From positions 302,850-366,849 of the forward strand of contig OZ246418.1 in assembly GCA_965231155.1 (NCBI GenBank): a DNA stretch of 64,000 nt, given 5' to 3'. The translations under genes were made by a program, and so were the position numbers. The DNA is from an uncultured Candidatus Saccharibacteria bacterium. GTDB taxonomy: Bacteria > Patescibacteriota > Minisyncoccia > UBA6257 > 2-01-FULL-56-20. The notes below the pieces were generated by a model. The model had not been told where the DNA came from. It ran no database searches and saw only the letters and a list, made by a program, of their open reading frames with translations. Of this stretch, positions 18,749 through 54,877 are shown piece after piece. Each line of letters starts with the position of its first letter. Position 1 is the stretch's first letter.

Positions 18749-18850
18749 ACCTTTTATACTAGATTTTGTTTGCGTGTGGTCAAGTCTCTCGGGAAAGAAA
18801 AAGAGCCTTGCATTCCCGAAGGAAGGCAAGGCTCTGAAATGAAAATGGTA

Positions 18851-39916: not shown

Positions 39917-42364
39917 ATGTCTAAGATAGAAAAAAGAGAAATAACTGGAGAGCTCCAAGATTCCTATTTGGAGTACGCCATGTCCGTCATCATTACGCGC
40001 GCTTTGCCGGACGTGCGAGACGGTATGAAGCCAGTGCATCGTCGTATTCTTTGGGATATGTGGGATAGTGGTTTGACCTATCAGGCGAAGACTCGAAAAT
40101 CTGCGAACGTGGTTGGTCAGGTATTAGGCCGGTACCATCCTCATGGCGACTCTTCTGTCTATGACGCCATGGTTCGTATGGCTCAGGATTTTTCTTTGCG
40201 CTATCCGTTAGTCTTGGGACAGGGAAACTTTGGTTCGATTGATGGTGATGGTCCCGCTGCCTATCGTTATACCGAAGCTAAACTGGCGAAGATTTCTTCC
40301 GAGGTACTGCTTGATATCGACAAGGAAACTGTAGACTGGCGTCCAAACTATGATGGCACCCGAGAGGAGCCAAGTGTTTTGCCAGCCAAACTACCAAACC
40401 TTCTCTTGAATGGTACGGTTGGTATTGCTGTTGGTATGGCGACGAATATTCCACCGCACAATCTTTCCGAAGTGTGCGATGCGACGTTACATTTAATCGA
40501 CGATCCGGATTCAACTGGGGAGGATCTTTTGCAGTTTGTTCAGGGACCAGACTTTCCAACTGGGGGAATTATTTTTGATAAAAAAGCTATTCGAGAAGCC
40601 TATCTTACCGGCAAGGGGAAGATTACCACTCGTGCCAAGGCGGAGATTGAGGAACGAAAAGGGAAGGGTTTTGATATTATAATTACCGAAATTCCGTATC
40701 AGGTGAACAAGTCTGACTTAGTGCAGAAGATGGCCGCTTTGGTGACGGATAAAAAGATCGAGGGTGTTCGTGATTTGCGTGATGAGTCAGACAAGGAAGG
40801 TTTGCGTATTGTAGTAGAGCTGAAGAATGATGCACCACCACAGAAGATTTTAAACCAGCTGTACTTACATACCGATCTGCAGAAGGATTTTCACTTGAAT
40901 ATGATTGCTCTGGCCAAGGGGATTGAGCCACGACTTTTTTCGCTCAAAGAAATTTTAGAGGCGTATCTTGAACACCGTAAAGAAGTTGTTCGTCGCCGGA
41001 CGATGTTTGATCTGAAGAAGGCCGAAGAGCGAGCGCACATTCTTGAGGGCTTAGCTCTGGCGCTTGGTTCTATCGACAAGGTCATCGCCATTATTAAGAA
41101 ATCTAAGGACAAGGAAGAGGCTCACCAGAACTTGCGTAAGACATTCAAGTTCAGCGATCTTCAGGCCAGCGCAATTTTAGAAATGCGTCTGCACGCTTTG
41201 GCTCGTTTGGAAAAAGAAAAGATTGATGCCGAACTCAAGGAGAAGCTGGCGCTGATTAAAGAACTAAATCTTATTCTGAAGAGCCCTGCGAGAATTTTAA
41301 AGATTATCAAAGACGAGTTGATAGAGTTGAAAGCCAAATATGGAGATGCGCGTCGCACCAAGGTGGTTGCTGGAGGATTATCTGCCTTCAACGAAGAGGA
41401 TCTGATTCCTGAGGAGCAGACAATCATCACTCTTTCTGCTGGTGGGTATATCAAGCGAGTAACCCCTGACACCTTCAAGGTGCAGCGACGCGGTGGAAAA
41501 GGTTTGATTGGTTCTGATGTGGCGGATGAGGACTTCCTTTCTCACTTTGTAACTGCCAGTACTCATGATTCTATTCTTTTCTTCACCGATCGCGGACGTG
41601 TGTTCCAGACTAAGGTCTATGAAATTCCTGTGGGCAGTCGTATTGCCAAGGGCCGCGCGATCCATAATTTCTTAGAACTTTCCTCCGAGGAGAAGGTCAG
41701 CGCTATTGTTACCTATAAGGAAGGCAGTGCTAAAGAAACAGCTGATAATCCAAAGCACTTGGTGATGACTACGAAAAACGGTTTGATTAAGCGCACGCCA
41801 CTTGAGGACTTTAAGAATATTCGTCGAACTGGCATTATCGCTATTTCGTTACAGAAAGGTGATGCCCTTCGTTGGGTTCGTCCTTCGCTTGGTAGTGATG
41901 AGATTATCATGGTCACCAAACAGGGTCAGTCGATTCGCTTCAAGGAGAATCAGGTTCGTTCTATGGGACGCACGGCGGCCGGTGTTCGTGGCATTCGTTT
42001 GAAGAGTAAGGATGAAGTGGTCGGTTTTGATATTATTGCTGCACTGAACAAAGGAAAAGCAGAAGAAGTGAACTTCTTGGTAGTTATGGAGCATGGTTTT
42101 GCCAAGCAGACGCCACTCTCCGACTACCGCCTTCAGAATCGTGGTGGGGGAGGTATTCGAACGGCGAAGATTACACCAAAGACGGGTGCTTTGGTTGCTG
42201 GGCAAATTATCTCTGAAGCAACTGAACTCCTCGCACTTTCTGAAAAAGGACAGATTATCCGAACCTTGCTTGAGAGTATTCGAACAGCTAGCCGTGGGAC
42301 TCAGGGAGTCCGCATTATGAGTGTGGCTGATAAGGACAGAGTGGCTGGTATTGTACTTATTTAA
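39917..42364 (+). CDS. gyrA: DNA gyrase subunit A
   Basis: [26 protein letters not shown] with the active-site Tyr region. C-terminal beta-pinwheel repeats. 815 aa. Confidence 0.95.
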
Positions 42365-42434: not shown

Positions 42435-43721
42435 ATGCAATTTTCTAAAAGACAGATCTTTTTAGTTATCTCTCTGATCGCGGGTATTGGAATAACAATT
42501 TTTCTTTTGTATTCCAGCATAAAAACTGAGGATACTGGCCCTGGTTCTATTAACGCAGCGAAAAGGACAAATAAGTTGGTGGTGTGGGGAGTGGATGATT
42601 CGAGCGCTTTCGCCACGATTAAAAAGAATTTTGAAGCTACCTATAAAGACGCGTCTGTAAATTATGTGCAACTTGATGAGGCGGTTATTCAGAGTCAGTT
42701 AGTGCAGGCACTGGCCAACAATCAAGGTCCGGATGTAATTATGATTAAAAACCGGACGCTGGCGAGACAGAAAAACTTTTTAGCACCAGCACCGGCCACG
42801 AAGATGAGCCTATCTCGATTCCGAGGTCTTTTTCCTACCGTAGCCGAACAGGATTTCACCGATTCAGGTCGTCAGATTTATGCTCTGCCTTTGTCTATTG
42901 ATACCCTGGCCTTAATTTACAACAAAGATTTTTTTGATCAGGCGAGAATTATTCAGCCTCCAGCGACGTGGACGGAGTTGGCGGATATCGTTCCTCAGTT
43001 GGTAAAACCGGGGAAGGGAGGACAGTTTGATCGATCAGCCGTTGCTCTTGGTGGTTCGAATAAGTCGATGACGAATGCCGGTGATGTCCTGACACTTCTT
43101 TTCATGCAGAGCGGCGCACGACTTGCTTCGGGTGAATTGGGAGTTGATGGACCTGGTCGTAAGGCTCTCAATTTCTATCTTCAGTTCTCTAATCCTCGAT
43201 CGTTGGCCTATACCTGGAATGATCTCCAGTCTAATGATCTTCAGAGTTTCGCTAACCTTCGAGCTGCTATGGTTATTGCGTACAAGAGACAGATCCCTTT
43301 TATCACCAATCAGAATAGTTTTGTGAACTATGGGATCGCATCAGTTCCTCAGTTGAGTACAGACAGAGTTGATTATGCAAATAGTTGGGGGCTGGCCGTT
43401 ACTCGAAATAGTCGCTTTTCGGCGAGAGCTTGGGATTTTGTAGTCTATGCAACAACGGTACAGCAGAATGCTCAGGCGTATAGCCAGGCGACAAAACTTC
43501 CTCCAGCGCTTCGAGAGCTTTTGGCCACCAACTATAACGATCCTGAACTTGGTGTGTTTGCTCAGCAGGCCCTCACCGCTCGTTCTTGGAACTCTCCCGA
43601 CGAAAAGCAAACGAGAGATATCTTCTCCGGCATGGTTGATTCTTATCTGACTGGACAGATGGATCAGGAGTCAGCGCTTGGTCGAGCACAAAATATACTG
43701 TCTCAAATATTTAGAAAATAA
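42435..43721 (+). CDS. ABC transporter substrate-binding protein (family 1, sugar-type)
   Basis: N-terminal TM/signal anchor, then KLVVWGVDDS...YVQLDEAVIQSQL, typical of extracellular solute-binding proteins. Confidence 0.75.
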   Translation: MQFSKRQIFLVISLIAGIGITIFLLYSSIKTEDTGPGSINAAKRTNKLVVWGVDDSSAFATIKKNFEATYKDASVNYVQLDEAVIQSQLVQALANNQGPDVIMIKNRTLARQKNFLAPAPATKMSLSRFRGLFPTVAEQDFTDSGRQIYALPLSIDTLALIYNKDFFDQARIIQPPATWTELADIVPQLVKPGKGGQFDRSAVALGGSNKSMTNAGDVLTLLFMQSGARLASGELGVDGPGRKALNFYLQFSNPRSLAYTWNDLQSNDLQSFANLRAAMVIAYKRQIPFITNQNSFVNYGIASVPQLSTDRVDYANSWGLAVTRNSRFSARAWDFVVYATTVQQNAQAYSQATKLPPALRELLATNYNDPELGVFAQQALTARSWNSPDEKQTRDIFSGMVDSYLTGQMDQESALGRAQNILSQIFRK

Positions 43722-43725
43722 GACT

Positions 43726-44238
43726 ATGTTCTTGAAGCCATACTTTCTTTTTGTCGGAGTTCTCTTGGTTTTTGTTCTAACTCTTTCCATTCCTCAGGCG
43801 GCGCTTGCTGCAGGCGCGAATCAGTGCAAAGTAGAAACTCCCCAGTTCTTACCAGGCGGATACTGGGGTCAGAATCCGCCACTCCTTCCTTGTGGAATAG
43901 GTCCGATTGAAACACGAGTGGATTGTTTGGAGTGTGGCCTTTGTGGTCTTCTGATGCTGGGGCAGCGAATAATCTACCTCATGTTGAGCTTTCTTTTCTT
44001 CGTGGTGGCACCTATTCGATTTATTTGGGGAGGGTTTCTTATTCTTGTCTCTCGTGGATCAAGCGAAACCGTCGCGCAGGGGAGAAAGATGATATATTAC
44101 ACCGTGATCGGCCTAATGATTGGTCTGGGAGCGTTTCTCATCGTCCAGACATTTCTCTGGCTTCTTGGTAATCTGGGTGGCGATCAGATCGGCTGGCCCG
44201 ATATAAAATGTCAACGGAACATTCGCCCATTGAGTTGA
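43726..44238 (+). CDS. Pilin-like paralog 1 (VirB2/TrbC-like T4SS pilin candidate)
   Basis: Signal peptide, Cys-rich N-terminal region, and a C-terminal two-helix module (LLMLGQRIIYLMLSFLFFVV...SRGSSETVAQGRKMIYYTVIGLMIGLGAFLIV) with the same pattern as paralogs 2-8. Start set at the internal Met (MFLKPYF). Confidence 0.6.
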   Translation: MFLKPYFLFVGVLLVFVLTLSIPQAALAAGANQCKVETPQFLPGGYWGQNPPLLPCGIGPIETRVDCLECGLCGLLMLGQRIIYLMLSFLFFVVAPIRFIWGGFLILVSRGSSETVAQGRKMIYYTVIGLMIGLGAFLIVQTFLWLLGNLGGDQIGWPDIKCQRNIRPLS

Positions 44239-44272
44239 GGGTGTTTTATTCTCTGAAAATTGATTACAATGT

Positions 44273-44677
44273 GTGCATAAAGAAAATATGAAAAGTTTAC
44301 TGCCTGGAGCCGGATTAGTTTTTCTTCTGATAGTAGTCGCAATGCCACTGCACGTTCTTGGAGTGGGACCAGGAGATCCCGGCGATGGCACGATTAGTCT
44401 CGCCGATCCCTTTAACTGTAGTACTGCTACTTCTGATGCCCCTTGCTTGATTCAGGTTCTAGGAGGAATCATCGGTCGCTTCAGTCAGATCGTGGTGCCT
44501 GTTCTTGTGGCAATGATTTTGTACGGAGGATTTCAGATGATGGCTGCCCGGGGCAGTACTGAGAAGTATGGTGCAGGAAAGAAGACTATCACTTACGCCG
44601 TCATTGGTTTTGCGGTCATCCTGGTCTCTCAGGGGATTGGATATATCTTGATTGATCTCCTTACGAGGCGAGCCTGA
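44273..44677 (+). CDS. Pilin-like paralog 2
   Basis: Signal peptide. C-terminal module VLGGIIGRFSQIVVPVLVAMILYGGFQMMAARGSTEKYGAGKKTITYAVIGFAVILV. Confidence 0.6.
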   Translation: MHKENMKSLLPGAGLVFLLIVVAMPLHVLGVGPGDPGDGTISLADPFNCSTATSDAPCLIQVLGGIIGRFSQIVVPVLVAMILYGGFQMMAARGSTEKYGAGKKTITYAVIGFAVILVSQGIGYILIDLLTRRA

Positions 44678-44760
44678 GGATTTTTGATTTTGCTTCTTGA
44701 TATGCTATACTCTTTAAACATATAAAAGGTCGGTATTTCCTTATATTATTTTCAATTGTA

Positions 44761-45144
44761 ATGACAAAGAACTTTAAAATTACCTTAGGAGCAGCTTCGA
44801 CAGCTTTGGTGTCTTTGGTGCCAATGGCTACTTCGTTTGCCTTCGTGACCGCTACTTTGCCAACGTTTACTCAGGTTGAGGCGCCAAAGGGTGGTAACGA
44901 GATTACTTCCTTCAATGGCATCTTGGCTATCTTAGTAACCATTTTGGGTTACGTCCAAGCTTTGTTCTGGATTGCCGCTGTGTTTACTGGTCTCTATGCC
45001 GCTTTCATGTACCTCACTGCTGGTGGTGAAGGAGAAAAAATCTCCAAAGCTAACCAGATGTTGATCTACACTGTTGTCGCGGTTATCGTGGCTGTTATCG
45101 CTTACTCGATCCCGGCGTTCGTGAAGACGACTATCCAGTCATAG
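44761..45144 (+). CDS. Pilin-like paralog 3
   Basis: C-terminal module YVQALFWIAAVFTGLYAAFMYLTAGGEGEKISKANQMLIYTVVAVIVAVIAYSIP. Confidence 0.6.
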   Translation: MTKNFKITLGAASTALVSLVPMATSFAFVTATLPTFTQVEAPKGGNEITSFNGILAILVTILGYVQALFWIAAVFTGLYAAFMYLTAGGEGEKISKANQMLIYTVVAVIVAVIAYSIPAFVKTTIQS

Positions 45145-45166
45145 TATCTTTAGAGATTATCTCTAC

Positions 45167-45195
45167 AAAAAAGACCCTTTTTGGGTCTTTTTTGT
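45167..45195 (+). terminator. Rho-independent terminator after pilin paralog 3
   Basis: aaaaaagaccc-ttttt-gggtct-tttttg. Confidence 0.6.
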
Positions 45196-45317
45196 TTCCA
45201 CTTTTTGATTCACAACGAAGCTCCTAACTGGCCTCCCATTATGCCTCTTGGATATGGGAGGGCAGTTAGGAGCGAGTCACTTGTTGCTTTTTTTGTCTTA
45301 CGGTAGAATAAATACTA

Positions 45318-45665
45318 ATGAGAACTTATGCGTCTATTCTGTTTTTCATAATTCTTGGTGCGCCGTTAGTTTCTTTTGCAGTTGCAGTACCCACTTGTGG
45401 TCCTAGTACTTCTCCTCTCTGCAATGTGGATGATGTCATTAGCTTAATTACCGCATTGGTGAATTATATGCAGGTCGTGTTTTGGATTTTGGCGGCAGCC
45501 TCAGGGCTCTATGCAGGGATACTGTATCTTCGGAGTGGTGGTAAGCCAGAAATGTTAAAGAGTGCCGAGAAACAACTTATCTATACAGTAGTGGCGGTCG
45601 CTGTAGCCGTCATGGCATACGGCATTCCTAAGCTTGTCGATAGTTTCTTACGTCTTCGCGCTTAG
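45318..45665 (+). CDS. Pilin-like paralog 4
   Basis: C-terminal module YMQVVFWILAAASGLYAGILYLRSGGKPEMLKSAEKQLIYTVVAVAVAVMAYGIP. Confidence 0.6.
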   Translation: MRTYASILFFIILGAPLVSFAVAVPTCGPSTSPLCNVDDVISLITALVNYMQVVFWILAAASGLYAGILYLRSGGKPEMLKSAEKQLIYTVVAVAVAVMAYGIPKLVDSFLRLRA

Positions 45666-45677
45666 CTTGATCTTTTT

Positions 45678-46229
45678 ATGAACCTACAAGAGGTCATCCA
45701 GGTAAAGAAAGTGTCCTCGGTAGTATCTTTCCCGATTGTTTTTTCTTTCATTTTTTTTATAATCTTTTCTTCCGGAGCTTTTCCAGTTGCCAGAGCAGAC
45801 TATCGTTGCGAAATTGCCGGTCCAAGCTTTGGCAATGTGTATGGGAGTGCAATTGATTGCTCAACGAGCTGTGGTGGTGTATGTGCGTCAGTTCCTGGTG
45901 GGGGAGGATCTTCGGGTGGTTCCGGGTTCACTCCGAGATATCCAACCTCTCGGTTGCCAGAAGGTGGTAATGCACCCGTAACAAATGCCGGACAAGTTTT
46001 GGATGTCGTAGTAAATATGTTGAACTTTGCGCAGGCCGTGTTTTGGGTGATGGCCGCCGGCTTTGGTCTCTATGGCGCCTACCTCTATCTTTTCTCGCAG
46101 GGAAACAAGGAGAGTGTTACTCAGGCCAAGAATATGATGGTGTATACTGTAGTAGCAGTGATGATTGCCATAATTTCGTACGGTATCCCTGCAATTATTA
46201 ATAATTTTGTGGCAATTAGTACTTCTTAA
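45678..46229 (+). CDS. Pilin-like paralog 5
   Basis: Cys-rich N-terminal region (ADYRCEIAG...CSTSCGGVCAS) plus C-terminal module FAQAVFWVMAAGFGLYGAYLYLFSQGNKESVTQAKNMMVYTVVAVMIAIISYGIP. Confidence 0.6.
   Translation: MNLQEVIQVKKVSSVVSFPIVFSFIFFIIFSSGAFPVARADYRCEIAGPSFGNVYGSAIDCSTSCGGVCASVPGGGGSSGGSGFTPRYPTSRLPEGGNAPVTNAGQVLDVVVNMLNFAQAVFWVMAAGFGLYGAYLYLFSQGNKESVTQAKNMMVYTVVAVMIAIISYGIPAIINNFVAISTS
46053..46136 (+). repeat. 84-bp identical tract, copy 1 (inside pilin paralog 5)
   Basis: Identical to 46444..46527 by direct comparison; encodes AAGFGLYGAYLYLFSQGNKESVTQAKNM. Confidence 0.85.
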
Positions 46230-46230
46230 T

Positions 46231-46620
46231 ATGAAAAATTATTATAAATTAGTCGGTTTCTTGGGAGGAGTTGTTTCTTTGGGTGGTGTTTTCGTGAGTG
46301 CCACAACGGTTCAAGCAGTTTGGAATCAGTATCCAACGTTTAGCGATCCACCGAGAGGGAATGCGCCGATTACCAGCGTCAATGATTCTTTGAATATTAT
46401 TGTGAATATTATCGACTTTGCGCAGGTTGCGTTTTTCATTCTCGCCGCCGGCTTTGGTCTCTATGGCGCCTACCTCTATCTTTTCTCGCAGGGAAACAAG
46501 GAGAGTGTTACTCAGGCCAAGAATATGTTTATTTATATGGCCGTTGCCATCTTTGTGGCTATTATTGCCTATGGAATCCCTTCTATCGTTGTAAACTTTG
46601 TAGACATAAGTATTTCTTAA
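46231..46620 (+). CDS. Pilin-like paralog 6
   Basis: The track ORF starts at 46207 and overlaps paralog 5, so the start is taken at MKNYYKLV just after that gene's stop. The C-terminal module is nearly identical to paralog 5. Confidence 0.55.
   Translation: MKNYYKLVGFLGGVVSLGGVFVSATTVQAVWNQYPTFSDPPRGNAPITSVNDSLNIIVNIIDFAQVAFFILAAGFGLYGAYLYLFSQGNKESVTQAKNMFIYMAVAIFVAIIAYGIPSIVVNFVDISIS
46444..46527 (+). repeat. 84-bp identical tract, copy 2 (inside pilin paralog 6)
   Basis: Identical to 46053..46136. Confidence 0.85.
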
Positions 46621-46623
46621 ATC

Positions 46624-47220
46624 ATGATACTCAAACAAGAGATTCGTCTAATAGTTTGTGGAGTATTCCTTTCTTTTGCTTTTTTAGTTTTCCTGGGAGT
46701 AACTGCCCCTCAACTAGCCCGAGCCGATTTTGTGTGTGAGGCGTATGGTACTCGAGTAAGCGATGAGGTTGCTTGTAATCACGACTGTCCAGATGCTTGT
46801 GTGCCAGTCGGTCGTTCTGGAGGAAGTGTGGCAACTCCTCCTTCATCAGCACCAGCATCGACGCCAGCACCTTCTCGAACTCCTTCAAGGACTGCGCCGG
46901 GAGTGAATCGTTTTGCCAATGAAAATACCCCATACCCTCATAATGTTGCCGACCAGATTCCTCGAGGGGGCCCAATTAGTGATGTGGATAGTTTTTTGTA
47001 TATTCTTACGGCGATTATTGAGTTTGCGGAAGCAATATTTTGGATTCTCGCCGTTGGCTTCGGTCTCTATGGCGCCTATCTGTATCTCTTCTCTCAGGGA
47101 AATTCAGAAAAGGCGGGGCAGGCCAGGAAGATATTTATATATGCAGCCATTGCTTCACTTTTAGCCATTGTGTCGTACGGCATTCCTGGTCTTGTTGAAA
47201 GTTTTGTCTTAGGATATTAA
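46624..47220 (+). CDS. Pilin-like paralog 7
   Basis: Cys-rich N-terminal region (ADFVCEAYG...CNHDCPDACVP), a Pro/Ser/Thr linker, and C-terminal module FAEAIFWILAVGFGLYGAYLYLFSQGNSEKAGQARKIFIYAAIASLLAIVSYGIP. Confidence 0.6.
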   Translation: MILKQEIRLIVCGVFLSFAFLVFLGVTAPQLARADFVCEAYGTRVSDEVACNHDCPDACVPVGRSGGSVATPPSSAPASTPAPSRTPSRTAPGVNRFANENTPYPHNVADQIPRGGPISDVDSFLYILTAIIEFAEAIFWILAVGFGLYGAYLYLFSQGNSEKAGQARKIFIYAAIASLLAIVSYGIPGLVESFVLGY

Positions 47221-47738
47221 TGCAAACTATGAATATTTTTAAAAGAATAGGACTGTCGGTTTCTTTGCTTTTGATTGTTATTACGACATTTGCGCCAATA
47301 TCTGCAGGGGCTATTTCTCGTTCTCGTCCGGGAGAGAGTCGAGTTTGTTTTGGGGTGGGTAATACGATAATCGATCTGAGCGGTCTTCCTTGTTTTGCGG
47401 GAATCTGTCTTCAGGCTGATCTTGAAGATGGTTGTCGAAGACTTGGTGGAACGTATGGAGTGATGCCTCAGTATACCGGTCCAGCGAGAACCAATGCGCC
47501 AGTTCAAGACGTCAATGATTTCCTTCAGATTCTTACCGACCTGGTGAGACTTGCCCAGATGGTCTTTTGGATTTTTGCAGTCGGCTTTGGTCTCTATGCT
47601 GCCTATCTTTATCTCTTTTCTGGAGGGAGTAAGGAGAGTGTTAGCCAGGCGCACAAGATGTTGATTTATACTGCCGTGGCATCATTAGTGGCAATTCTTG
47701 CGTACGGTATTCCGGGAATCATCGACAGCTTCTTCTAA
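47220..47738 (+). CDS. Pilin-like paralog 8
   Basis: C-terminal module LAQMVFWIFAVGFGLYAAYLYLFSGGSKESVSQAHKMLIYTAVASLVAILAYGIP. Confidence 0.6.
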   Translation: MQTMNIFKRIGLSVSLLLIVITTFAPISAGAISRSRPGESRVCFGVGNTIIDLSGLPCFAGICLQADLEDGCRRLGGTYGVMPQYTGPARTNAPVQDVNDFLQILTDLVRLAQMVFWIFAVGFGLYAAYLYLFSGGSKESVSQAHKMLIYTAVASLVAILAYGIPGIIDSFF

Positions 47739-47761: not shown

Positions 47762-47800
47762 AAAGGCCATCGCTCGGGGGTTACCCAGGCGATGGCCTTT
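47762..47800. terminator. Bidirectional hairpin terminator closing the pilin array
   Basis: 12-bp perfect inverted repeat aaaggccatcgc / gcgatggccttt, preceded by an A-run and followed by T-rich sequence. Confidence 0.6.
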
Positions 47801-47820
47801 GTATTTACCTGCAATGTGCT

Positions 47821-48255
47821 TTAACGGGGGAGTATGGAAACGGTAACTGGTTTGTTACCGTTCTTACTCCCGTCGTTCCGAAACCGAATCGCCGTAATCC
47901 GGCTTTTCGGTCTTGTGACTTTTTCCGGTTCGTAGAGAACCGCTGAGCTGTCGGGTGGCTCGCTTTCGTAGTATCTCACGACCCCTACTGGCAGGTCGTG
48001 GTCGATCCAGAATCGACCTGGGGGCATGAGGACCTTCCCGGTCTCGCACTCTCCAAGGACCGGAATGATGATTTTCCCGCCTCCGGCAGCCTGGATCTCT
48101 CGGACGTAGTCCCACTCTTTGCCGCAGCGAAGAGTGATGACTAGCTGTTGTTTCGGTGGCGGTGCCTCCTCTTTGTGGAGCAGGAGGATGGCCACCACGA
48201 TGGCGATTGTAATGACGACCGGAATGGCCGCCAGCTTCTTTTGCTGAGCAGTCAT
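47821..48255 (-). CDS. Membrane-anchored protein co-transcribed downstream of the SPFH gene; possible NfeD-like partner (weak)
   Basis: N-terminal TM helix LAAIPVVITIAIVVAILL plus a ~110-aa soluble domain. Its start overlaps the SPFH stop. Elevated GC. Confidence 0.35.
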   Translation of the reverse strand: MTAQQKKLAAIPVVITIAIVVAILLLHKEEAPPPKQQLVITLRCGKEWDYVREIQAAGGGKIIIPVLGECETGKVLMPPGRFWIDHDLPVGVVRYYESEPPDSSAVLYEPEKVTRPKSRITAIRFRNDGSKNGNKPVTVSILPR

Positions 48256-49268
48256 TATCTCCTCTCTCCTCTCATGAGGATCTCCTCAAGACTTCTCGCC
48301 CCGATAGCCTTCTCGAGCACCAGAGCGAATCCACCGATCGCCTGGACTAGCCCAGGAATCGTGAATCCCTTGCCTTCGCGAGTGGCCTTCCATTCCATCA
48401 CGATTCGAAGAGCTTCCGGGAGTGAAATATCCTGTCCAAGATTCTGAGCGACCTGGACGATCTGTTGGGCCTTGAGTAGATCAGTCTCTTGCTCGTAGGC
48501 CTCACCTCGCCGTTCCTCTTCCTCGACGGCGTGTCTCTCCGCGGCCTTAGCGAGGTCTCCTTCTGGAGCGATCTCGCCGATGTTGAGCCGTTTGATGATG
48601 ATGCCGAGCGATTCTTTGCAGAGTCGCCCGTTACCATTCATCGCCTCGACCATTTGTTCGTCGGTTATGTCTCCGACGATGGCCCGCAAGATTTGCTTGA
48701 TACCTTCTGTTTTTGTGGACGTCATGGTTTCCCATGTCATCCCTTCACCGAAGGCCCAGGTCCGGAGTTGCTGGCGAACGACGTCGGCGAGGATGTTGCT
48801 CACGCCAACCTCACCACCATTATCGAGATAGGTGATGGTGTTGCCTGGATCAGGAACCCAGGTCAACGACGTCGGCACCTTGACCTCGGCTCCGTCTCTC
48901 ACTCGGACCTTTTCGTCAGGAAGATCCTGGTTGACGGCCTGAACTTTGATGGGGATGAAGTCAAAAAAGAACGCTGGGAAGAATCGGAGTCCTTCCTTTT
49001 TTGTTCTCTTCAACCTTCTTCCCAGAAAGGTCACCTGTCCGACATGGGGCGGATTCGCCTCGATGGTTTTGAGGCTTAGGATGGCGTAGAACGCTGGGAG
49101 GTTGATTCCCAGCACAACGAAAAGAATTCTTGCCAAGAGAAGACTTCCGGTTGCCCAGAACATTCCTCCGGCAATTACACCACTGATGGTCACACAGGTG
49201 ACCAACAGGAAGAAGAAGATTAAGAACTCTCCTCCGTTCAGGGTTTCATCTTCCCTCCACCATTTCAT
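48255..49268 (-). CDS. SPFH/band-7 (flotillin/stomatin-like) membrane protein
   Basis: Two N-terminal TM helices followed by an SPFH-like region (VNQDLPDEKVRVRDGAEVKVPTSLTWVPDPGNTITYL...ADVVRQQLRTWAFG) and a coiled-coil Glu/Ala-rich C-terminus. Start set at the internal Met (MKWWRED). Confidence 0.65.
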   Translation of the reverse strand: MKWWREDETLNGGEFLIFFFLLVTCVTISGVIAGGMFWATGSLLLARILFVVLGINLPAFYAILSLKTIEANPPHVGQVTFLGRRLKRTKKEGLRFFPAFFFDFIPIKVQAVNQDLPDEKVRVRDGAEVKVPTSLTWVPDPGNTITYLDNGGEVGVSNILADVVRQQLRTWAFGEGMTWETMTSTKTEGIKQILRAIVGDITDEQMVEAMNGNGRLCKESLGIIIKRLNIGEIAPEGDLAKAAERHAVEEEERRGEAYEQETDLLKAQQIVQVAQNLGQDISLPEALRIVMEWKATREGKGFTIPGLVQAIGGFALVLEKAIGARSLEEILMRGERR

Positions 49269-49496
49269 GGCATGTCTCCTTCCGCGCTTTATGCGCATTG
49301 TTTTCAGTTGTCGAAATGTCCCACTGGGACGAACCGCAGGGACCATCCCTTTGGAACATTTACTGTTTATTATTATAACACTGATAAATAGATTAGTCAA
49401 ACACAGCATTTTCATTCTTTTCTTCTCGGAAAAGCGAGTTTTTTAGGTAAATAAAAACCCCGATAAAACTAGGTTTTATGGGGTTGATTGGGTTTG

Positions 49497-49537
49497 CCTA
49501 GGGTGTCGATCACTTTCGTGACGACACCCTAGGGCTT
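49497..49537. terminator. Hairpin terminator downstream of the GC-rich minus-strand gene
   Basis: 12-bp inverted repeat cctagggtgtcg / cgacaccctagg with a 14-nt loop. Confidence 0.5.
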
Positions 49538-49549
49538 GGCCGAGGCGAG

Positions 49550-50065
49550 CTACTGGAGCTCGGCCTCGGTGAAGTTGAAGGACTTGGCCTCGGTAACGAC
49601 TTTCGCCACCTCTCCCTTCACGGGAGACTTCTTCGCGGCCGCGTAGCGGTCGCGAAGATCGGCGAGGATGACCTGGCGGAAGCTGTCGAGGTCGCTGGCG
49701 CCGGGGATGTTCTCAACATCCTTCTTCCCGGCTTCCAGAATCCGCACGATGCGATCCACGATCGCGCGGGTCGAGCCGAACGAGATCGTCGTCGACCCAT
49801 TGACGCAGACCTCGGCGCGGTCGTCACCCCTGCTTTCCAGCAGGATGACCAGATCGCCGACGATAGCCTTACCATCGGTTTCTTCCGGGGGGGTCGACTC
49901 CCACGGCGTTTTCGCCGTCCAGCCGCGGAGCGCCTTGCAGAGCTCCGAAACGGGTGCGACCGTCTTGCCGTTGATGCCGTCCCGCAACGCTTTGTCAGCG
50001 TGCGCGGTGGCAGCGGTCAGAGTGATAGCCAAACCAATGGCCAGGGTTGTGACGAGCTTCGTCAT
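49550..50065 (-). CDS. Secreted hypothetical protein encoded by a strongly GC-rich gene
   Basis: Signal peptide MTKLVTTLAIGLAITLTAATAHA. The coding sequence is visibly above 60% GC with GC-rich third positions, which also creates spurious overlapping ORFs in other frames. Confidence 0.5.
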   Translation of the reverse strand: MTKLVTTLAIGLAITLTAATAHADKALRDGINGKTVAPVSELCKALRGWTAKTPWESTPPEETDGKAIVGDLVILLESRGDDRAEVCVNGSTTISFGSTRAIVDRIVRILEAGKKDVENIPGASDLDSFRQVILADLRDRYAAAKKSPVKGEVAKVVTEAKSFNFTEAELQ

Positions 50066-50259
50066 GGTAGTCTCCTTCTTCTTTCCCCTTATCAGTTGCT
50101 CCCCTTGCGGTGGAGTGCCTCGGGTTTGATTACTTCACAGCTGAAAATATATTAACCCATATATCACTATTTGTCAATAGCAAGGGATAAACCCTTCATT
50201 TTTTTCTAGGGAAAAGGGGATTGCCGGGGTCGTAAAAATAAGGCAAAATCTAGGTTATT

Positions 50260-50341
50260 GGGCAGGTGGCGAAATTGGCAGACGCACTGGCTTTAGGAGC
50301 CAGCGCCGCAAGGCATGAGGGTTCAAGTCCCTCCCTGCCCA
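50260..50341 (+). tRNA. tRNA-Leu (anticodon TAG), type II with long variable arm
   Basis: Acceptor GGGCAGG/CCTGCCC, anticodon loop TTTAGGA, variable arm CGCCGCAAGGCAT, T-loop GGTTCAAGTCC. Confidence 0.8.
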
Positions 50342-50351
50342 CACAAACTAT

Positions 50352-51413
50352 ATGAAAAAAATCATTCATCCCTGGCAGACTATCGTGTGGGTGTGTTGCA
50401 TCGGAACGGCGGCGCTGACTTCGATTCTGGCCATCGTTGGTCCCGTGGCCGATGAGTCTGATTTCTTCTCTTACTATATGAGACTGGCCGTTGGGCCACT
50501 TCTTGATGCCCTCGTGATGTTCTTTAATTTTTTCCTTGTGGCATCTTTGGTCTATGGGGCTTTTTATTTCTTCTATTCAGCTTTTTATATCAAGCGCGAT
50601 CCTTTTCAGTTTTTTTCGCGGAGGTTTTTAACTGATACCTTTTGGGCTGGCCTTCGGGAGTTATGGGCGATTATCACTCTCGTTTTGCCAATAGTCGCCA
50701 CCCTGCTTTTTGTGAGTATGAGTATGTCGTATATCAACCCAGTGAATGCTACTCGATTGATAGATATTGAGGTGTTGCGTTGGGATTCGTTCCTGTTTGG
50801 AAGCTATCCCTTTATCCAGTGGCAGGGGTTGGCCTACCCAGATCTATTTATTCAGGCGGTGAACTTTTCTTTTATGTACCTTCCGCTCTTTCTGATTGGT
50901 TTTTCTTTTTATGTGTTCTTTTGGCAACGGAAGGTTTTTGGGGAGATGGCCGCAGTGTTTTGTCTAAATCTCGTTTTGATGATTTTTTTCTGGCAGATAT
51001 TTCCGGTGATGAGTCCACACGATCGTTTCATTGATAATGTGTACGAACTGCCTGTCCCTTCAGCCATCGAAGAGCAATTGGCTTCAAATTATCATCCGCA
51101 TCCACTCATCCAGCAGTTCTTAGATCAGATGAGGGATAATAAAAATAGGAGTTTGAATGGTACGATGCCGACTTCAACCTTGCCGAGTGCTCACGTGGCT
51201 TGGGCAACCCTGTTAGTCTATTACGCCTATCGGACACGGAAGTGGTCGCTGGTTCTTTTCCTGCCGGTGGCAATATTTTCTAGCATTGGTACGTTTCTTT
51301 TTGCCCAGCATTATGTGGTGGACGTGCCAGCCGGAGTGGCAGTGCTTGCCCTGTCGGTTTTCTTGGTTCGACTCGCGGACAGAGCCTCACTTCCTCAAAC
51401 AAGATTTATCTAG
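50352..51413 (+). CDS. PAP2-superfamily membrane phosphatase/phosphotransferase-like protein
   Basis: Polytopic. C-terminal motifs PSAHVAW (compare PSGH) and FAQHYVVD (compare SRxxxxxHxxxD). Confidence 0.55.
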   Translation: MKKIIHPWQTIVWVCCIGTAALTSILAIVGPVADESDFFSYYMRLAVGPLLDALVMFFNFFLVASLVYGAFYFFYSAFYIKRDPFQFFSRRFLTDTFWAGLRELWAIITLVLPIVATLLFVSMSMSYINPVNATRLIDIEVLRWDSFLFGSYPFIQWQGLAYPDLFIQAVNFSFMYLPLFLIGFSFYVFFWQRKVFGEMAAVFCLNLVLMIFFWQIFPVMSPHDRFIDNVYELPVPSAIEEQLASNYHPHPLIQQFLDQMRDNKNRSLNGTMPTSTLPSAHVAWATLLVYYAYRTRKWSLVLFLPVAIFSSIGTFLFAQHYVVDVPAGVAVLALSVFLVRLADRASLPQTRFI

Positions 51414-52297
51414 TCGAGAGAGAGGGCAGGGGAGTAGTCGCCAATCTTTTCGAAATGAAAATTATCCAGAGTAGGAGCGATTTTTTCCATCAATTTTTGA
51501 GCTTCTGCTAGTTCATTTTCTAAATCAGCCAGATTGCCAATTTGGCCACTGATAAAGACGAGAAGCTCTTGGTTAACGATTTCAATATCGTATTTTAGGT
51601 TGTGGTCGAGAAGATAGGCTAGGAGGTCTGGACTGAAAATTTGGTGTGCTTCGATTTCGTATTTTCTCGGCGCGTACAGTGCAAACTTCTTTTCGAACTC
51701 TTCGGGAAGGGAGATTTTTTCGCCAATACTTCGGTTAAACCAATCCTTCTTATAATCAAGGTAGAAGTGAGGGAAGCGCCCGTTAAAGGTAAAACCAAAA
51801 ACGGTATATAGGTGGGTTTGTTTGTGTTTTCCAGAACCAGTGGTGAATGTGTAGCTAAAAATTCTCAAAGGATGATTTCCTATTGTACCAGAGAGAAAAT
51901 GGGTGATAGATTCGCTATGTCCTTGATCGAACATAAACGCTTTTTCTTTACTGTAGTCGGCGGCAGGCGTGTATGACAAATCATGTTTTTTGGCGAATTG
52001 TTGCCAGAAGATAGTTTCTATCATACTTCGTGCAATACCATAGAGAAGAAGTAGGACTATAAAAGGGAGGGCGATGATAATGCCAGGCCAAGCCCCGTCA
52101 GTATTTTCCAGAGGGAGAATGACGAAGAAGGTAAGACTGGCCCAGACAAGTAATCCAAGACAGACAAGAGCCCAGTATTTTTTAAGAATGCTTAAAAGAA
52201 GGACTTGGGCGCTTTTTGATACATCTGAAACAGGAAGGTCGTAGGAAAATCCTGAGGTGGCTTGAGTTGGCTCGGTTTCGACTGCTTCGTCTATCAT
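51410..52297 (-). CDS. Hypothetical membrane protein
   Basis: Two TM helices near the N-terminus and a large soluble domain. No motif. Confidence 0.35.
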   Translation of the reverse strand: MIDEAVETEPTQATSGFSYDLPVSDVSKSAQVLLLSILKKYWALVCLGLLVWASLTFFVILPLENTDGAWPGIIIALPFIVLLLLYGIARSMIETIFWQQFAKKHDLSYTPAADYSKEKAFMFDQGHSESITHFLSGTIGNHPLRIFSYTFTTGSGKHKQTHLYTVFGFTFNGRFPHFYLDYKKDWFNRSIGEKISLPEEFEKKFALYAPRKYEIEAHQIFSPDLLAYLLDHNLKYDIEIVNQELLVFISGQIGNLADLENELAEAQKLMEKIAPTLDNFHFEKIGDYSPALSLD

Positions 52298-52301
52298 TCT
52301 G

Positions 52302-52373
52302 TGCCGCGGGAGGGAATTGAACCCCCGACGCCAGCCTCTTCAGGGCTGCGCTCTACCACTGAGCTACCGCGGC
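52302..52373 (-). tRNA. tRNA-Phe (anticodon GAA)
   Basis: Reverse complement GCCGCGGTAGCTCAGTGGTAGAGCGCAGCCCTGAAGAGGCTG...GGTTCAATTCCC...CCGCGGCA; anticodon loop CTGAAGA. Confidence 0.8.
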
Positions 52374-52498
52374 GATACTACATAATGTAGCCGAATTCTT
52401 CTGAATATTCAATGTAGTGCCCTCGGTAGGAAGGCTCCGCTATTCCTACCTTAGCTCCTTAATCAAAAATAAGCCTCACGGCTTATTTTTGCTCTCGG

Positions 52499-52570
52499 TG
52501 CCCTCGGTAGGAATCGAACCTACATTAAGGGATTAGAAGTCCCTCGTTCTATCCATTGAACTACGGGGGC
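52499..52570 (-). tRNA. tRNA-Arg (anticodon TCT)
   Basis: Reverse complement GCCCCCGTAGTTCAATGGATAGAACGAGGGACTTCTAATCCCT...GGTTCGATTCC...CGAGGGCA; one C-A mismatch in the acceptor stem. Confidence 0.7.
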
Positions 52571-52646
52571 GTTGTTTTCGCCTCGCTCCCATTGTATGCT
52601 GGCCCCAGCGGTTATTCAACTGAATTCAAGAGAAAGGAGGCGGCAT

Positions 52647-53273
52647 ATGCTCGCCACTCATTTCGCGAAGTGTGAGGGTATTTTTTGCCGATGCGAAGTT
52701 CGGCGGTATGGCCTGGCGCTGTTCGTTGCTTCTCTAACGTTCTTGGTTGAGTTGGTTGGAAGCTACATCACTAATAGCGTCAGTCTACTTTCGGACGCCG
52801 TTCATCTCTTCACCGACTGTGTTGATCTGATGATCGGCCTATGGGTCAGCACCCTGGTCTGGTATCGCAGTCTTCACGAGAAGACCACCCGAGCCGAGGG
52901 AGGAATACTCAGTTCTTGTTTGCTCTTCGGCTTGGTCGGGTTCATTCTGTGGGAGAGTATTCCTCGACTTTTTCATCCCGAAGAGGTGTCTTCGATACCA
53001 ATGCTCATCATCGCAACAGCTGGTCTCTTGGGCAACGTCATCCAGCTGAAGATCATTGAAGCAGGGGAGGACAATCATCGGACACAAAAGTCGTTGATCC
53101 TTCACTTTGCGAGTGACGTGTTGATCTCGGTCGCCGTAATTCTTGGTGGACTTGCCACCTATTTCCTTGGGTGGCTTGTCGTCGATCCGATCATCTCGAT
53201 AGCTGTCGCCGTCTTCATCGGCTGGAAGAGCGCACAGCTCTTTCGTGACTCTTGGAGAGAGCTTTTTCCCTAA
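52647..53273 (+). CDS. Cation diffusion facilitator (CDF) family metal efflux protein, TM domain only
   Basis: HLFTDCVD and HFASDVLIS (HxxxD motifs in TM2 and TM5). Start set at the internal Met because the track start abuts the tRNA. Confidence 0.6.
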   Translation: MLATHFAKCEGIFCRCEVRRYGLALFVASLTFLVELVGSYITNSVSLLSDAVHLFTDCVDLMIGLWVSTLVWYRSLHEKTTRAEGGILSSCLLFGLVGFILWESIPRLFHPEEVSSIPMLIIATAGLLGNVIQLKIIEAGEDNHRTQKSLILHFASDVLISVAVILGGLATYFLGWLVVDPIISIAVAVFIGWKSAQLFRDSWRELFP

Positions 53274-53319
53274 CCCTTCCCATTCGAAGGGTTTTTTAAT
53301 AAGATGAAACGAGCTTAAT

Positions 53320-53390
53320 CGGGCTGTAGTATACCGGTAGTACGCCTGCTTTGGGAGCAGGTAGACAGGGTTCAATTCCCTGCAGCCCGA
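53320..53390 (+). tRNA. tRNA-Pro (anticodon TGG)
   Basis: Acceptor CGGGCTG/CAGCCCG, anticodon loop TTTGGGA, T-loop GGTTCAATTCC. Confidence 0.8.
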
Positions 53391-53405
53391 CAGATAGTGA
53401 TACAA

Positions 53406-53480
53406 GCGCCCTTAGCTCAGTGGTAGAGCGACTCGTTTACACCGAGTAGGCCGTGGGTTCAATCCCTACAGGGCGCACCA
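53406..53480 (+). tRNA. tRNA-Val (anticodon TAC), CCA encoded
   Basis: GCGCCCTTAGCTCAGTGGTAGAGCGACTCGTTTACACCGAGT...GGTTCAATCCC...AGGGCGCACCA. Confidence 0.85.
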
Positions 53481-53482
53481 TT

Positions 53483-54874
53483 ATGAAGTCTTTGTTTTCA
53501 GGGACCGCTTCTCGAATCTTTTCCTCCAGAGGGACATTCTTCTTTTTTCTAGTTGGTGCACTATTCTCCTTTTTTCTTTGGCAACAAAATATATCTTCAT
53601 CATTCTTTTATGATGAAGCAGTATATGTGAATCTCGCCGAGCATCCTTTCCGTAGTGATTATTACGCAGACAAGATCTTCTTTCGCCATCCACCCCTTTA
53701 TTATCTAATTCTTTCGGCAGTAGGTATTTTTTCTGGTTTCGGTGAGGTAGTAATGAGATTTCCTTCGTTGGTATTCTCTTTCTTCTCAATGGTCATACTT
53801 TATTTTTTGGGCAGGAGATTGCACTCTCCTGCTTTTGGTGTAGTGGTTAGCTCACTTCTTCTCCTTAGCACCCTCCAACAACAGTATGCCCAGGCAGCGA
53901 CTATGTATGCGCTTACGACGCTTTTGGTCACGATCTGTATCTATGGGCTTGTTGCCCGTCGCTATGCAGTAATGTGGGGAGCTTTTTTTGGAGCCCTTTT
54001 TTCTCATTTCTTTGCCTTTCTTCTCCTCGTTCCTATTATTATGGAGAATCGTTTTTTGAGTCACCTTAAAGAGAAGGCTTCATTCAAGATAAAAGTCATC
54101 TTTGGCATAAGCTTGTTTTTCCTTTTGCCGATTCTTCTGCCCGGTGCTTCATTCCATCTCTCTCGTGTCAGTTTTGATTACTGGTGGTTCCAACTTCTCA
54201 ATCTTTATTTTTCCCTTTCTCCAGTGCTTCTGGCTGGCTTTCTTTTTTATAGTTCTAGAAACAACAAGAACGAGCAAACTACCCCACTTATTTTTCTGTG
54301 TGTTTCATTCTTAATTTTCTCAGTTATCTTGCCTCCTTTTGTTCGTTATCTTGCCATCTTTTATCCGATCTTTCTTGCGCTCGGTACGTTGGGGGTTTGG
54401 AAGTTGATTCAGGAGGTTTTTTCCAGGGGAGATACTGGCCAGAAAATGATTTTTGGTATTCTTTTTGTTGCAACCTGCGTGCTTACATTTCCTGCGGGCA
54501 GTTTCGGAATCTATCCATTACAACACTCACCCATGATGGACATTGGAGATACTATTCACACGGAGAGCTGGCGGGAGATTGTTGCTGTTATGGCCAGTTC
54601 CGGTGGGGGGAGTGTGATGACCTCCCGTGTCGTGCCTTTTAAATATTATGCCGATAAGAGTGGCTTGCAGTATGTAGTAAGCGCTGAAGCAAAAGATTGG
54701 AACGAAACAGTATTTCGGGATCGGGTGTCTCGGGGCCTGGATAACTGGATAATTCTCCAATCCCTTTTTATTCCACAACGTTTCTATGATTTTCTCGAAG
54801 GGAGCTCACTGTATGAGCGTTATGCCGATTTTCCTTACTCGACTCTTTATCGAAAAAAGAACCTCGCTCAATAG
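53483..54874 (+). CDS. GT39/GT83-like (PMT/ArnT-type) polyprenyl-phosphate-sugar dependent glycosyltransferase
   Basis: Polytopic. FYDEAVYVNLAEHPF...FFRHPPLYYL is typical of the first periplasmic loop of ArnT/PMT-family enzymes. Start set at MKSLF, directly after tRNA-Val. Confidence 0.6.
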   Translation: MKSLFSGTASRIFSSRGTFFFFLVGALFSFFLWQQNISSSFFYDEAVYVNLAEHPFRSDYYADKIFFRHPPLYYLILSAVGIFSGFGEVVMRFPSLVFSFFSMVILYFLGRRLHSPAFGVVVSSLLLLSTLQQQYAQAATMYALTTLLVTICIYGLVARRYAVMWGAFFGALFSHFFAFLLLVPIIMENRFLSHLKEKASFKIKVIFGISLFFLLPILLPGASFHLSRVSFDYWWFQLLNLYFSLSPVLLAGFLFYSSRNNKNEQTTPLIFLCVSFLIFSVILPPFVRYLAIFYPIFLALGTLGVWKLIQEVFSRGDTGQKMIFGILFVATCVLTFPAGSFGIYPLQHSPMMDIGDTIHTESWREIVAVMASSGGGSVMTSRVVPFKYYADKSGLQYVVSAEAKDWNETVFRDRVSRGLDNWIILQSLFIPQRFYDFLEGSSLYERYADFPYSTLYRKKNLAQ

Positions 54875-54877
54875 TTT

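Follow-up and report, generated by a model that had tools for sequence, protein, structure and literature searches.

A GC-rich segment beside tRNA-Leu(TAG) in a Candidatus Saccharibacteria genome is probably a composite of two old transcription units

We analyzed 64,000 nt of contig OZ246418.1 (assembly GCA_965231155.1) from an uncultured Candidatus Saccharibacteria bacterium, a stretch that we refer to as the window. About 2.3 kb of it, lying next to a tRNA-Leu(TAG) gene, holds three minus-strand genes of high guanine-plus-cytosine (GC) content, which encode an SPFH/Band-7 membrane scaffold, a small transmembrane (TM) partner, and an exported orphan protein of 171 residues, p171. A first-pass annotation had read this segment as a single horizontal acquisition, perhaps from a high-GC host or neighbor. 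Our analysis indicates that it is probably not one imported island: two transcription units, independent of each other and sharing an old, gene-specific GC state, seem to have come to lie side by side at a chromosomal junction that is itself conserved. The SPFH gene and its partner appear to be ancestral residents of the junction between tRNA-Leu and a pilin array, and p171 appears to be a lineage-specific gain for which no donor could be found.

Results

Three neighboring genes are GC outliers, in two separate pieces

The window as a whole had a GC content of 0.462, in agreement with the background of about 46% estimated earlier. We used the 61 other open reading frames (ORFs) of the window as the reference set for z scores (GC 0.461±0.033; GC at third codon positions, GC3, 0.456±0.059). 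Measured against this set, the three genes were indeed GC-rich, above all at third positions: GC was 0.561 and GC3 0.655 (z = 3.4) for the partner gene, 0.535 and 0.624 (z = 2.8) for the SPFH gene, and 0.630 and 0.820 (z = 6.1) for the p171 gene, with only a slight rise in GC at first and second positions. The sliding-window check that had been proposed gave the same picture, as no window of equal length outside the segment reached its values. The stretch 47821-49268 had a GC of 0.543 and 49550-50065 a GC of 0.630, and equal-length windows outside 47800-50130 peaked at 0.506 and 0.574, respectively. The spacer between these stretches (49269-49549), which holds the SPFH promoter, had a native-like GC of 0.44. 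Because of this spacer the GC-richness is not uniform, and what had been described as one GC-rich segment consists of two pieces.

Within the GC-rich genes, codons ending in C were favored over those ending in T (ATC, 0.73 vs. 0.33; TAC, 0.86 vs. 0.33; TTC, 0.79 vs. 0.38). Codons ending in A were kept in the SPFH and partner genes and depleted in p171 (frequency of A at third positions, A3, 0.06), whose codon table is of the type typical of high-GC genomes. Other minus-strand genes had a GC3 of about 0.47, and the excess of the three genes persisted against that same-strand set; strand bias as the cause of the shift from T to C at third positions accounted for part of the excess of C but still left GC3 0.15-0.19 above that of the other minus-strand genes. 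The two spurious ORFs reported earlier over p171 (49618-49875 and 49668-50129) are present, and the antisense one, which shares its wobble position with p171, appears to be the usual shadow artifact of a GC3-rich gene. We also considered whether an antisense gene in overlap constrains p171 and rejected the idea, given the shared wobble position, the expected GC3 shadow, and the high synonymous divergence (dS) of p171.

The sole place outside the segment that approached its GC content was a second islet at 18825-19285 (GC 0.57-0.65). Its ORF (18851-19285, minus strand, 144 aa) has a lipoprotein-type signal, LLLSGC, and no Pfam match, and sits between a YebC-like gene and a PilB/T2SSE ATPase gene. 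One may read this as a hint that, in this genome, high GC could be a common trait of the genes for small exported proteins.

The GC excess is old and appears to be maintained in p171

The closest available relative of the region was a contig from Logan accession SRR29305604 (L001; GC 0.47), with about 80% DNA identity to the window and a GyrA 98% identical in amino acid sequence. Its gene order is that of the window, namely GyrA, SBP_bac_1, eight pilins, partner, SPFH, p171, tRNA-Leu, and PAP2, and it has the same promoters, the same hairpins, and the same GC excess (0.56 for the partner, 0.52 for SPFH, 0.61 for p171). Because a contig that is only about 80% identical in DNA keeps these values, the GC-richness is likely to predate the split between the window and L001. 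The ratio of nonsynonymous to synonymous divergence (dN/dS) between the two was 0.27 for the partner, 0.09 for SPFH, and 0.21 for p171, and this purifying selection indicates that all three are real genes.

Four-fold degenerate sites of the window and L001 were compared within codons whose amino acid is unchanged between the two genomes. The proportion of sites that differed was 48% in p171, 47% in GyrA, and 51% in the SBP_bac_1 gene. GC at four-fold sites (GC4) of p171 was 0.85 in both the window and L001, and that of neighboring genes was 0.43. Changes from G or C (strong, S) to A or T (weak, W) and changes in the opposite direction numbered nine each in p171, and 14 of the 32 changes were exchanges between G and C. 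From 672 four-fold sites of the flanks we derived a two-state model of neutral decay (equilibrium GC4 0.43, per-lineage decay factor 0.515), and it required an ancestral GC4 of 1.25 for p171, which is impossible; decay from a GC4 of 1.0 would give 0.72 today, compared with the 0.85 observed (P = 0.013 in each genome). Passive amelioration cannot yield a GC4 of 0.85 with 48% of the sites changed, and thus the GC-richness of p171 must be maintained by some bias or repeatedly renewed. The compositional outlier on which transfer had been argued therefore stands as an outlier (GC3 z scores of 2.8-6.1) and is no sign of a recent arrival, since the composition is old and stable. Deviating composition, one of the usual marks of an island, is present, yet the deviation has been stable over a dS of about 1.

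For the other two genes the same model implied ancestral GC4 values at the split of 0.73 (SPFH) and 0.87 (partner). Mismatches between the S and W classes amounted to 0.31 in SPFH and 0.25 in the partner, where gene-specific equilibria predict 0.36 and 0.33 and decay predicts about 0.38-0.39; the observed values agree with gene-specific equilibria no less well than with decay. Synonymous divergence between the window and L001 was 0.65-0.70 in SPFH and the partner and 1.0-1.7 in the flanks. Across the clade, SPFH GC3 departed from that of its neighbors by more than 0.1, in both directions, in 47% of 17 loci. The same discordance was seen in 6% of 107 other ORFs and in 0% for GyrA, SBP_bac_1, and XerC. 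This pattern points to cassette exchange among relatives or to gene-specific set points.

SPFH and its partner occupy a conserved junction

More distant SPFH homologues (26-45% identity), obtained by protein search and one metagenome scan, showed that the arrangement is widespread in the clade. An SPFH gene followed by a small TM ORF and convergent pilins, often with SBP_bac_1 and GyrA, was found in 13 loci (L006, L007, L008, L010, L016, L017, L019, L021, L026, L033, L036, L042, and L043). Among loci with at least 1.5 kb of downstream sequence, 13 of 18 had convergent VirB2-like pilins. SBP_bac_1 and GyrA came next in L007, L010, L026, and L036, and SBP_bac_1 alone on L017, where the contig ends. 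On the other side, a further 12 loci (L006, L007, L010, L016, L017, L019, L020, L021, L026, L030, L031, and L036) had tRNA-Leu(TAG) upstream of SPFH, at distances of 117-725 bp. The contigs that carry the conserved block span GC contents of 0.31-0.58. Thus comparison with relatives, which had been suggested as a check, found SPFH and its partner present at the site and p171 absent outside the window, L001, and a short contig described below (L044).

The phylogenetic signal was in keeping with this order. The window SPFH was sister to a group of five (L010, L016, L006, L008, and L007), the ratio of the window-to-clade distance to the within-clade distance was about 1.3 for XerC and SPFH alike, and GyrA gave the same nearest relative. 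A metagenome-assembled genome of Saccharibacteria (L005, 3923-10771) carries GyrA, SBP_bac_1, two pilin-like genes, PAP2, and tRNA-Leu(TAG); neither SPFH nor the partner was found in it, and the pair may have been either gained after this branch or lost in it.

Hallmarks of integration were sought as well. There was no recombinase within 47800-50260, neither end of the tRNA-Leu gene was repeated in the window with up to 3 mismatches, and no target-site or att repeats were found at the segment, which lies on the 5' side of the tRNA gene. The nearest recombinase, at 54878-55798, is a conserved XerC orthologue 4.5 kb off on the far side of the tRNA; relatives often carry a XerC-type recombinase just past the tRNA, and the window orthologue is 68-70% identical to the XerC that flanks the block in them. 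Absence from the same site in related genomes, another test for an island, held for p171 alone. A phage or plasmid origin was rejected, with no p171 relatives found in IMG/VR, the INPHARED phages, or the PLSDB plasmids, no SPFH relatives in IMG/VR, and no PADLOC matches.

The interval between tRNA-Leu and XerC varies. XerC directly follows the tRNA in L006, L007, and L019, and about 4.5 kb separates them in the window, where 50260-55798 holds PAP2_3, a DUF3137-like gene, tRNAs Phe, Arg, Pro, and Val, a cation-efflux gene, and a PMT_2-like gene. L026 resembles the window in that PAP2 adjoins the tRNA.

On the other flank, all eight ORFs of the pilin array were paralogous by phmmer. PF18895 matched six of the eight, one of them (44273-44677) at 40.3 bits against a cut-off of 26.6 and the other five below the cut-off. 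Many relatives carry the array as well, in a smaller number of copies than the eight of the window and L001. Pilin pairs between the window and L001 have diverged unevenly (68-96% amino acid identity, dN/dS 0.04-0.18). A VirB4-like ATPase gene lies far from the array, at 3457-5178. Tandem arrays of 2-11 variable VirB2 paralogues have been described in Patescibacteria (PMC12102498), and together with the VirB4-like gene and the length of the source contig, 808 kb, this makes the genomic context point to Patescibacteria, or the candidate phyla radiation (CPR). The words SPFH, band 7, stomatin, gyrA, and tRNA are all absent from the text of that paper, and further full-text searches of the literature returned nothing. 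A constant SPFH-partner pair with tRNA-Leu at the end of a pilin array seems not to have been described previously.

p171 is an exported orphan restricted to one lineage

The p171 protein has a Sec-type signal peptide (…TAATAHA, with cleavage before DK), two invariant cysteines, and a predicted alpha/beta body; its AlphaFold2 (AF2) model was poor, with a mean confidence score (pLDDT) of 51, too low for a fold search. It had no family match in Pfam, NCBIfam, PHROG, or PADLOC. A k-mer-seeded search of 5.8 billion proteins returned only p171 itself and the L001 copy; when HMMER was run exhaustively against 1.84 billion cluster representatives, one further relative, P0012, came to light. The relatives found in these searches were therefore two, P0002 (67% identity by BLASTP) and P0012 (38%).

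P0012 lies on L044, a 1.4-kb contig with a GC of 0.57. On it the P0012 gene is followed by a GAAA-loop hairpin and terminator, a promoter and leader like those of the window SPFH gene, and the 5' end of a membrane-protein gene, which ends with the contig before any SPFH domain. The L044 spacer has a GC of 0.52, and GC3 is 0.72 in the p171 homologue and 0.63 in the next gene.

Only in the window, L001, and L044 did we find p171 in the slot that separates tRNA-Leu from SPFH. Nine loci have a gap of 117-212 bp there and L036 has one of 437 bp, and none of these gaps contains a credible gene. Since at least 10 other lineages lack p171 in the same slot, we regard it as a lineage-specific addition; its gain appears to be older than the divergence of the window, L001, and L044, with no donor identifiable. 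In L010 (7447-7803), L008 (67-441), and L035 (3-263) the slot holds a different family of 118-125 residues, native in GC and lacking a signal peptide, with the motif EDIEGAVxSLLGSK…C…IIGV…ILQKMI. These proteins looked plausible by eye as remote homologues of p171, and hhalign gave the match a probability of 0.1%, so they were rejected as such. Of the proposed horizontal acquisition, then, the part that concerns SPFH and its partner is contradicted by their conserved synteny, a finding that the first-pass annotation had itself named as grounds for refutation, and the part that concerns p171 survives only as a gain within one lineage. As the databases hold no p171 homologue outside the lineage, a well-sampled high-GC host is an unlikely donor: none appeared among the 1.84 billion representative proteins or in phages or plasmids, and the GC of p171 is at steady state.

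The SPFH protein and its partner resemble a scaffold and a coupled subunit

The earlier assignment of the 337-residue protein to the SPFH/flotillin-like scaffolds held. It matched Pfam PF01145 (Band_7/SPFH) over residues 72-263 at 43.2 bits (gathering cut-off 23.6, E = 5.7e-11), and PF01145 was also annotated, as a precomputed match, on six of the six other SPFH homologues returned (P0004-P0009). Solved stomatin structures (16 chains each) matched weakly (E = 0.0025-0.005), and the NCBIfam HflK/HflC profile gave no match. A match to phrog_200 (E = 5.9e-12) was considered as a sign of phage origin and set aside, because only the shared SPFH domain lies behind it. Alignment A1 shows hydrophobic N-terminal segments, a charged helical stretch (ERRGEAYEQETDLLKAQQ) that matches the stomatin structures only weakly, and a conserved IIMEWKATREGKGFTIPG-type motif at the C-terminus. 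We placed the start of the gene at 49268, not at 49415 or 49346, because the upstream extension shifts frame between the window and L001 despite nearly identical DNA.

The partner (144 aa) forms one operon with SPFH through a start/stop overlap, ATGA, and is likely to be translationally coupled to it. Its AF2 model, a TM helix plus nine strands, reached a pLDDT of only 52 and was not reliable enough for a fold search. NfeD (PF01957) gave no Pfam match to the partner at E ≤ 1 and NCBIfam gave none either; the sole Pfam match, TIR_2 at E = 0.03, was judged to be chance. A small, tightly coupled TM ORF (119-218 aa) immediately 3' of SPFH was seen in 17 further distinct loci, and a similar C-terminal motif ends 15 of the 17. 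Position, architecture, and the shared C-terminal pattern are suggestive of homology between the window partner and these ORFs, with profile methods marginal (hmmsearch E = 0.064; hhalign probability 51-64%).

Two transcription units have their own signals

The features of the region are collected in Table 1. Transcript 5' ends are predicted at about 49365 and about 50142. Only one of the two hairpins that had been called strong terminators kept that role. The hairpin at the 3' end of the partner gene is stable whichever strand is folded (z = -4.8 and -4.3), and in both cases a U-run follows the stem. The one closest to p171 is a real hairpin without a U-tract, and the probable p171 terminator is the hairpin and U-run at 49449-49485. 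The minus-strand fold of 49440-49552, which contains both, has an energy of -46.9 kcal/mol (z = -7.5), and both hairpins are retained in L001 despite changes in the stem sequences.

The SPFH leader folds as a two-tier hairpin and is 100% identical between the window and L001 (about 1330-1500 of that contig) over about 90 nt, compared with about 80% for coding DNA. In the L044 leader (about 810-950) the inner GGAUGG/CCGUCC helix is kept and the outer helix is different and still pairs. Rfam has no family for this leader, a possible regulatory RNA element. In other lineages (L008, L010, L017, L021, L024, L026, and others), a TTGAC-N17-TATAAT promoter lies 100-170 nt upstream of SPFH, and the leaders have a short hairpin followed by TTTAAAAA, a recurring pattern unlike that of the window. 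An RNA gene within the GC-rich DNA was not found: Rfam gave only tRNAs, and a low-threshold scan returned chance matches.

Table 1. Features of the tRNA-Leu/pilin junction and its flanks in the window.
Feature	Coordinates	Strand	Basis
tRNA-Leu(TAG), at the position given by the first-pass annotation; conserved left anchor, divergent from the SPFH side	50260..50342	+	ARAGORN, Rfam
p171 promoter, sigma-70-like, TTGACA-17-TAATAT	50149..50177	minus	Promoter scan, 10/12 matches; conserved in L001
p171, orphan exported protein, 171 aa	49550..50065	minus	ORF
GAAA-loop hairpin, 16 bp, GC-rich, no U-tract	49497..49533	minus	Fold
Canonical terminator hairpin and U-tract	49449..49485	minus	Fold
SPFH promoter TTGACT-17-TATAAT with TG	49400..49372	minus	Promoter scan, 11/12 matches
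SPFH promoter and structured leader of ~100 nt	49269..49400	minus	Promoter scan, fold z = -3.1
SPFH/Band-7 membrane scaffold, 337 aa	48255..49268	minus	PF01145 match
Partner, 144 aa, N-terminal TM helix and predicted all-beta domain with two Cys	47821..48255	minus	ORF, ATGA overlap with SPFH at 48255
Bidirectional intrinsic terminator hairpin between last pilin gene and partner	47762..47800	both	17-nt inverted repeat, 88% complementary
Eight VirB2-like (T4SS_pilin) paralogues, convergent on partner	43678..47738	+	PF18895
SBP_bac_1, before the pilin array	42435..43721		
GyrA, before SBP_bac_1	39917..42364		

Discussion

In the reading that we consider probable, the SPFH-partner bicistron, which runs from 49268 to 47821 with its own promoter, its leader, and a shared bidirectional terminator, would be an ancestral, vertically inherited module of a Patescibacteria-like clade, placed between tRNA-Leu(TAG) and a VirB2-like pilin array. 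In stomatin, HflK/C, and flotillin, SPFH proteins assemble on the membrane into large rings or cages within which client membrane proteins are confined. By analogy with these, the window SPFH would most likely build a large oligomer of the ring or cage type at the cytoplasmic membrane. The partner, with its single membrane pass, would show a disulfide-bonded beta domain outside the cell, would be held in a fixed ratio to SPFH by translational coupling, and would be a stoichiometric subunit or client of the SPFH assembly. The fixed position of the pair suggests that it could organize or quality-control the membrane pool of VirB2-like pilins. The p171 gene, monocistronic and transcribed on its own, would have been gained in the stem of the window/L001/L044 lineage and would occupy a variable slot between tRNA-Leu and SPFH; its product would be an exported, probably disulfide-bonded accessory protein. 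A fixation bias, whether it arises through selection for GC at synonymous sites or through GC-biased gene conversion, would uphold the GC content of the p171 gene.

A broader proposal joins these points, and we offer it tentatively, as a combination that may well prove wrong. A fixation bias would keep GC-rich synonymous equilibria in a few small exported or membrane genes, and the SPFH pair would be a dedicated accessory of the pilin array. Such a bias could stem from selection acting on mRNA or, if a recombination hot spot adjoins tRNA-Leu, from GC-biased gene conversion there.

Several points weigh against the composite that we favor. It leaves the GC3 excess of SPFH and its partner (+0.15 to +0.19 relative to other genes on that strand) unexplained, and these two genes may have ameliorated from an ancestral GC4 of about 0.73-0.87, which makes possible a swap for a GC-richer allele shortly before the split. 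Tree congruence is coarse, with few species markers (GyrA, SBP_bac_1, and XerC on 5-7 loci), and there is a sampling gap between L001, with 88% SPFH identity, and the next relative, with 45%. L044 is only 1.4 kb long and breaks off within its downstream gene before an SPFH domain could be reached. Homology of the window partner to the partners of other loci is suggestive, it is gene order that suggests the link between the SPFH pair and the pilins, and the structure models of p171 and the partner are both of low confidence (pLDDT 51 and 52).

The first of these points leads to the strongest alternative, allelic replacement in situ. It holds that the block from tRNA-Leu to the terminator at 47762-47800 was swapped by homologous recombination shortly before the window/L001 split, with the conserved tRNA and flanks as anchors and with a GC-richer, L044-like member of the same clade, not a host, as the donor. 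L044 has the features that such a donor would need, with p171, the GAAA hairpin, and the same type of promoter and leader on a contig of GC 0.57 with a spacer of 0.52. The implied ancestral GC4 of SPFH (0.73) and the partner (0.87) is near that of p171, dS is lower in these two genes than in the flanks (0.65-0.70 vs. 1.0-1.7), and the frequent GC3 discordance of SPFH (47% of loci vs. 6% of other ORFs) is what exchange among relatives predicts. We nevertheless think it unlikely. Distance ranks and ratios of SPFH agree with those of XerC and GyrA, the spacer inside the block has a native-like GC of 0.44, and none of the sampled donors is closer than 45% in SPFH identity. Mismatches between S and W at four-fold sites suit gene-specific equilibria at least as well as decay. 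Moreover, p171 shows no amelioration whatever, so that a maintaining force is required anyway, and such a force could cover all three genes.

A further alternative is codon adaptation, in which the three genes would be highly expressed and the GC3 excess would reflect translational selection for codons ending in C or G. The strong preference for NNC over NNT, the retention of A-ending codons in SPFH and the partner, the reduced dS of these two genes, and the strong consensus promoters on both units all agree with such an explanation. So does the gene for ribosomal protein S1, rpsA (37787-38911), whose GC3 of 0.557 is the second highest among well-supported genes outside the segment; the highest, 0.585, belongs to the cation-efflux gene (52572-53273). 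The pilin genes, whose products are likely to be abundant, have an ordinary GC3 of 0.33-0.54, however, and the SPFH gene of L006 has the lowest GC3 on a contig that also carries rpoC, rpsF, ssb, and recA. The depletion of A-ending codons in p171 (A3 = 0.06) speaks for a general high-GC table, not for tuning of NNY codons, and strong translational selection is not expected in symbionts with tiny genomes. We regard codon adaptation as distinctly improbable.

That some unrelated organism of high GC, for instance a host, supplied the whole segment of about 2.3 kb as a foreign island inserted at tRNA-Leu is very hard to credit: the outlier is real, adjoins a tRNA gene, and includes a codon table typical of high-GC genomes, but SPFH, the partner, and the tRNA are syntenic across a clade with contig GC of 0.31-0.58, SPFH relationships are congruent with those of XerC and GyrA, an integrase and att repeats are both lacking and the tRNA has the segment on its wrong side, the two separate transcription units have native-type AT-rich promoters, p171 has no homologue outside the lineage among 1.84 billion representatives, phages, and plasmids, and composition has been steady over a dS of about 1.

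GC outliers beside tRNA genes are routinely scored as horizontal acquisitions, and here that rule misclassifies an operon that appears to be ancestral and syntenic. The GC signal of p171 is no clock of recent arrival, which calls for caution in transfer scans of reduced genomes; if the proposed fixation bias is true, compositional outliers in such genomes would be unreliable as markers of transfer. It is still unusual that GC-rich synonymous sites persist in these genes of an AT-leaning small genome. The analysis also defines a conserved block, consisting of tRNA-Leu, SPFH, partner, VirB2-like pilin array, SBP_bac_1, and GyrA, that recurs within one clade of ultra-small bacteria. The pilin arrays of this clade are believed to matter for its epibiotic life, and the SPFH pair is a concrete candidate for a membrane-scaffold partner of the pilins.

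Among known systems, stomatin-type SPFH operons with an NfeD partner include QmcA-YbbJ and YqiK-YqiJ of E. coli, FloT-NfeD of B. subtilis, and PH1511-PH1510 of Pyrococcus. The window pair is like these in that two tightly coupled genes encode an SPFH protein with a putative N-terminal membrane anchor and a small membrane protein with a soluble part predicted to be beta-rich. Unlike them, the window partner has no PF01957 match, a single TM helix, and a Cys-containing beta domain that is probably extracytoplasmic. The window SPFH also differs in belonging to a divergent clade, seen only in Patescibacteria-like contigs; its C-terminal motif is distinctive, it resembles solved stomatins only weakly (E about 0.003), and the pair is fixed beside a VirB2-like pilin array. 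The proposed oligomeric assembly, enclosing or regulating membrane clients, recalls the HflK/HflC-FtsH cages; unlike that system, the window has a single SPFH gene, no adjacent FtsH, and no NCBIfam HflK/HflC match. With tRNA-linked islands the segment shares an atypical GC content beside a tRNA and a lineage-restricted cargo, p171; it differs from them in lacking an integrase and a repeat of the tRNA end, in its 5' location, and in that most of it appears to be ancestral and syntenic. The eight-gene array, finally, is like the VirB2 arrays of Patescibacteria, with their 2-11 tandem variable paralogues (PMC12102498).

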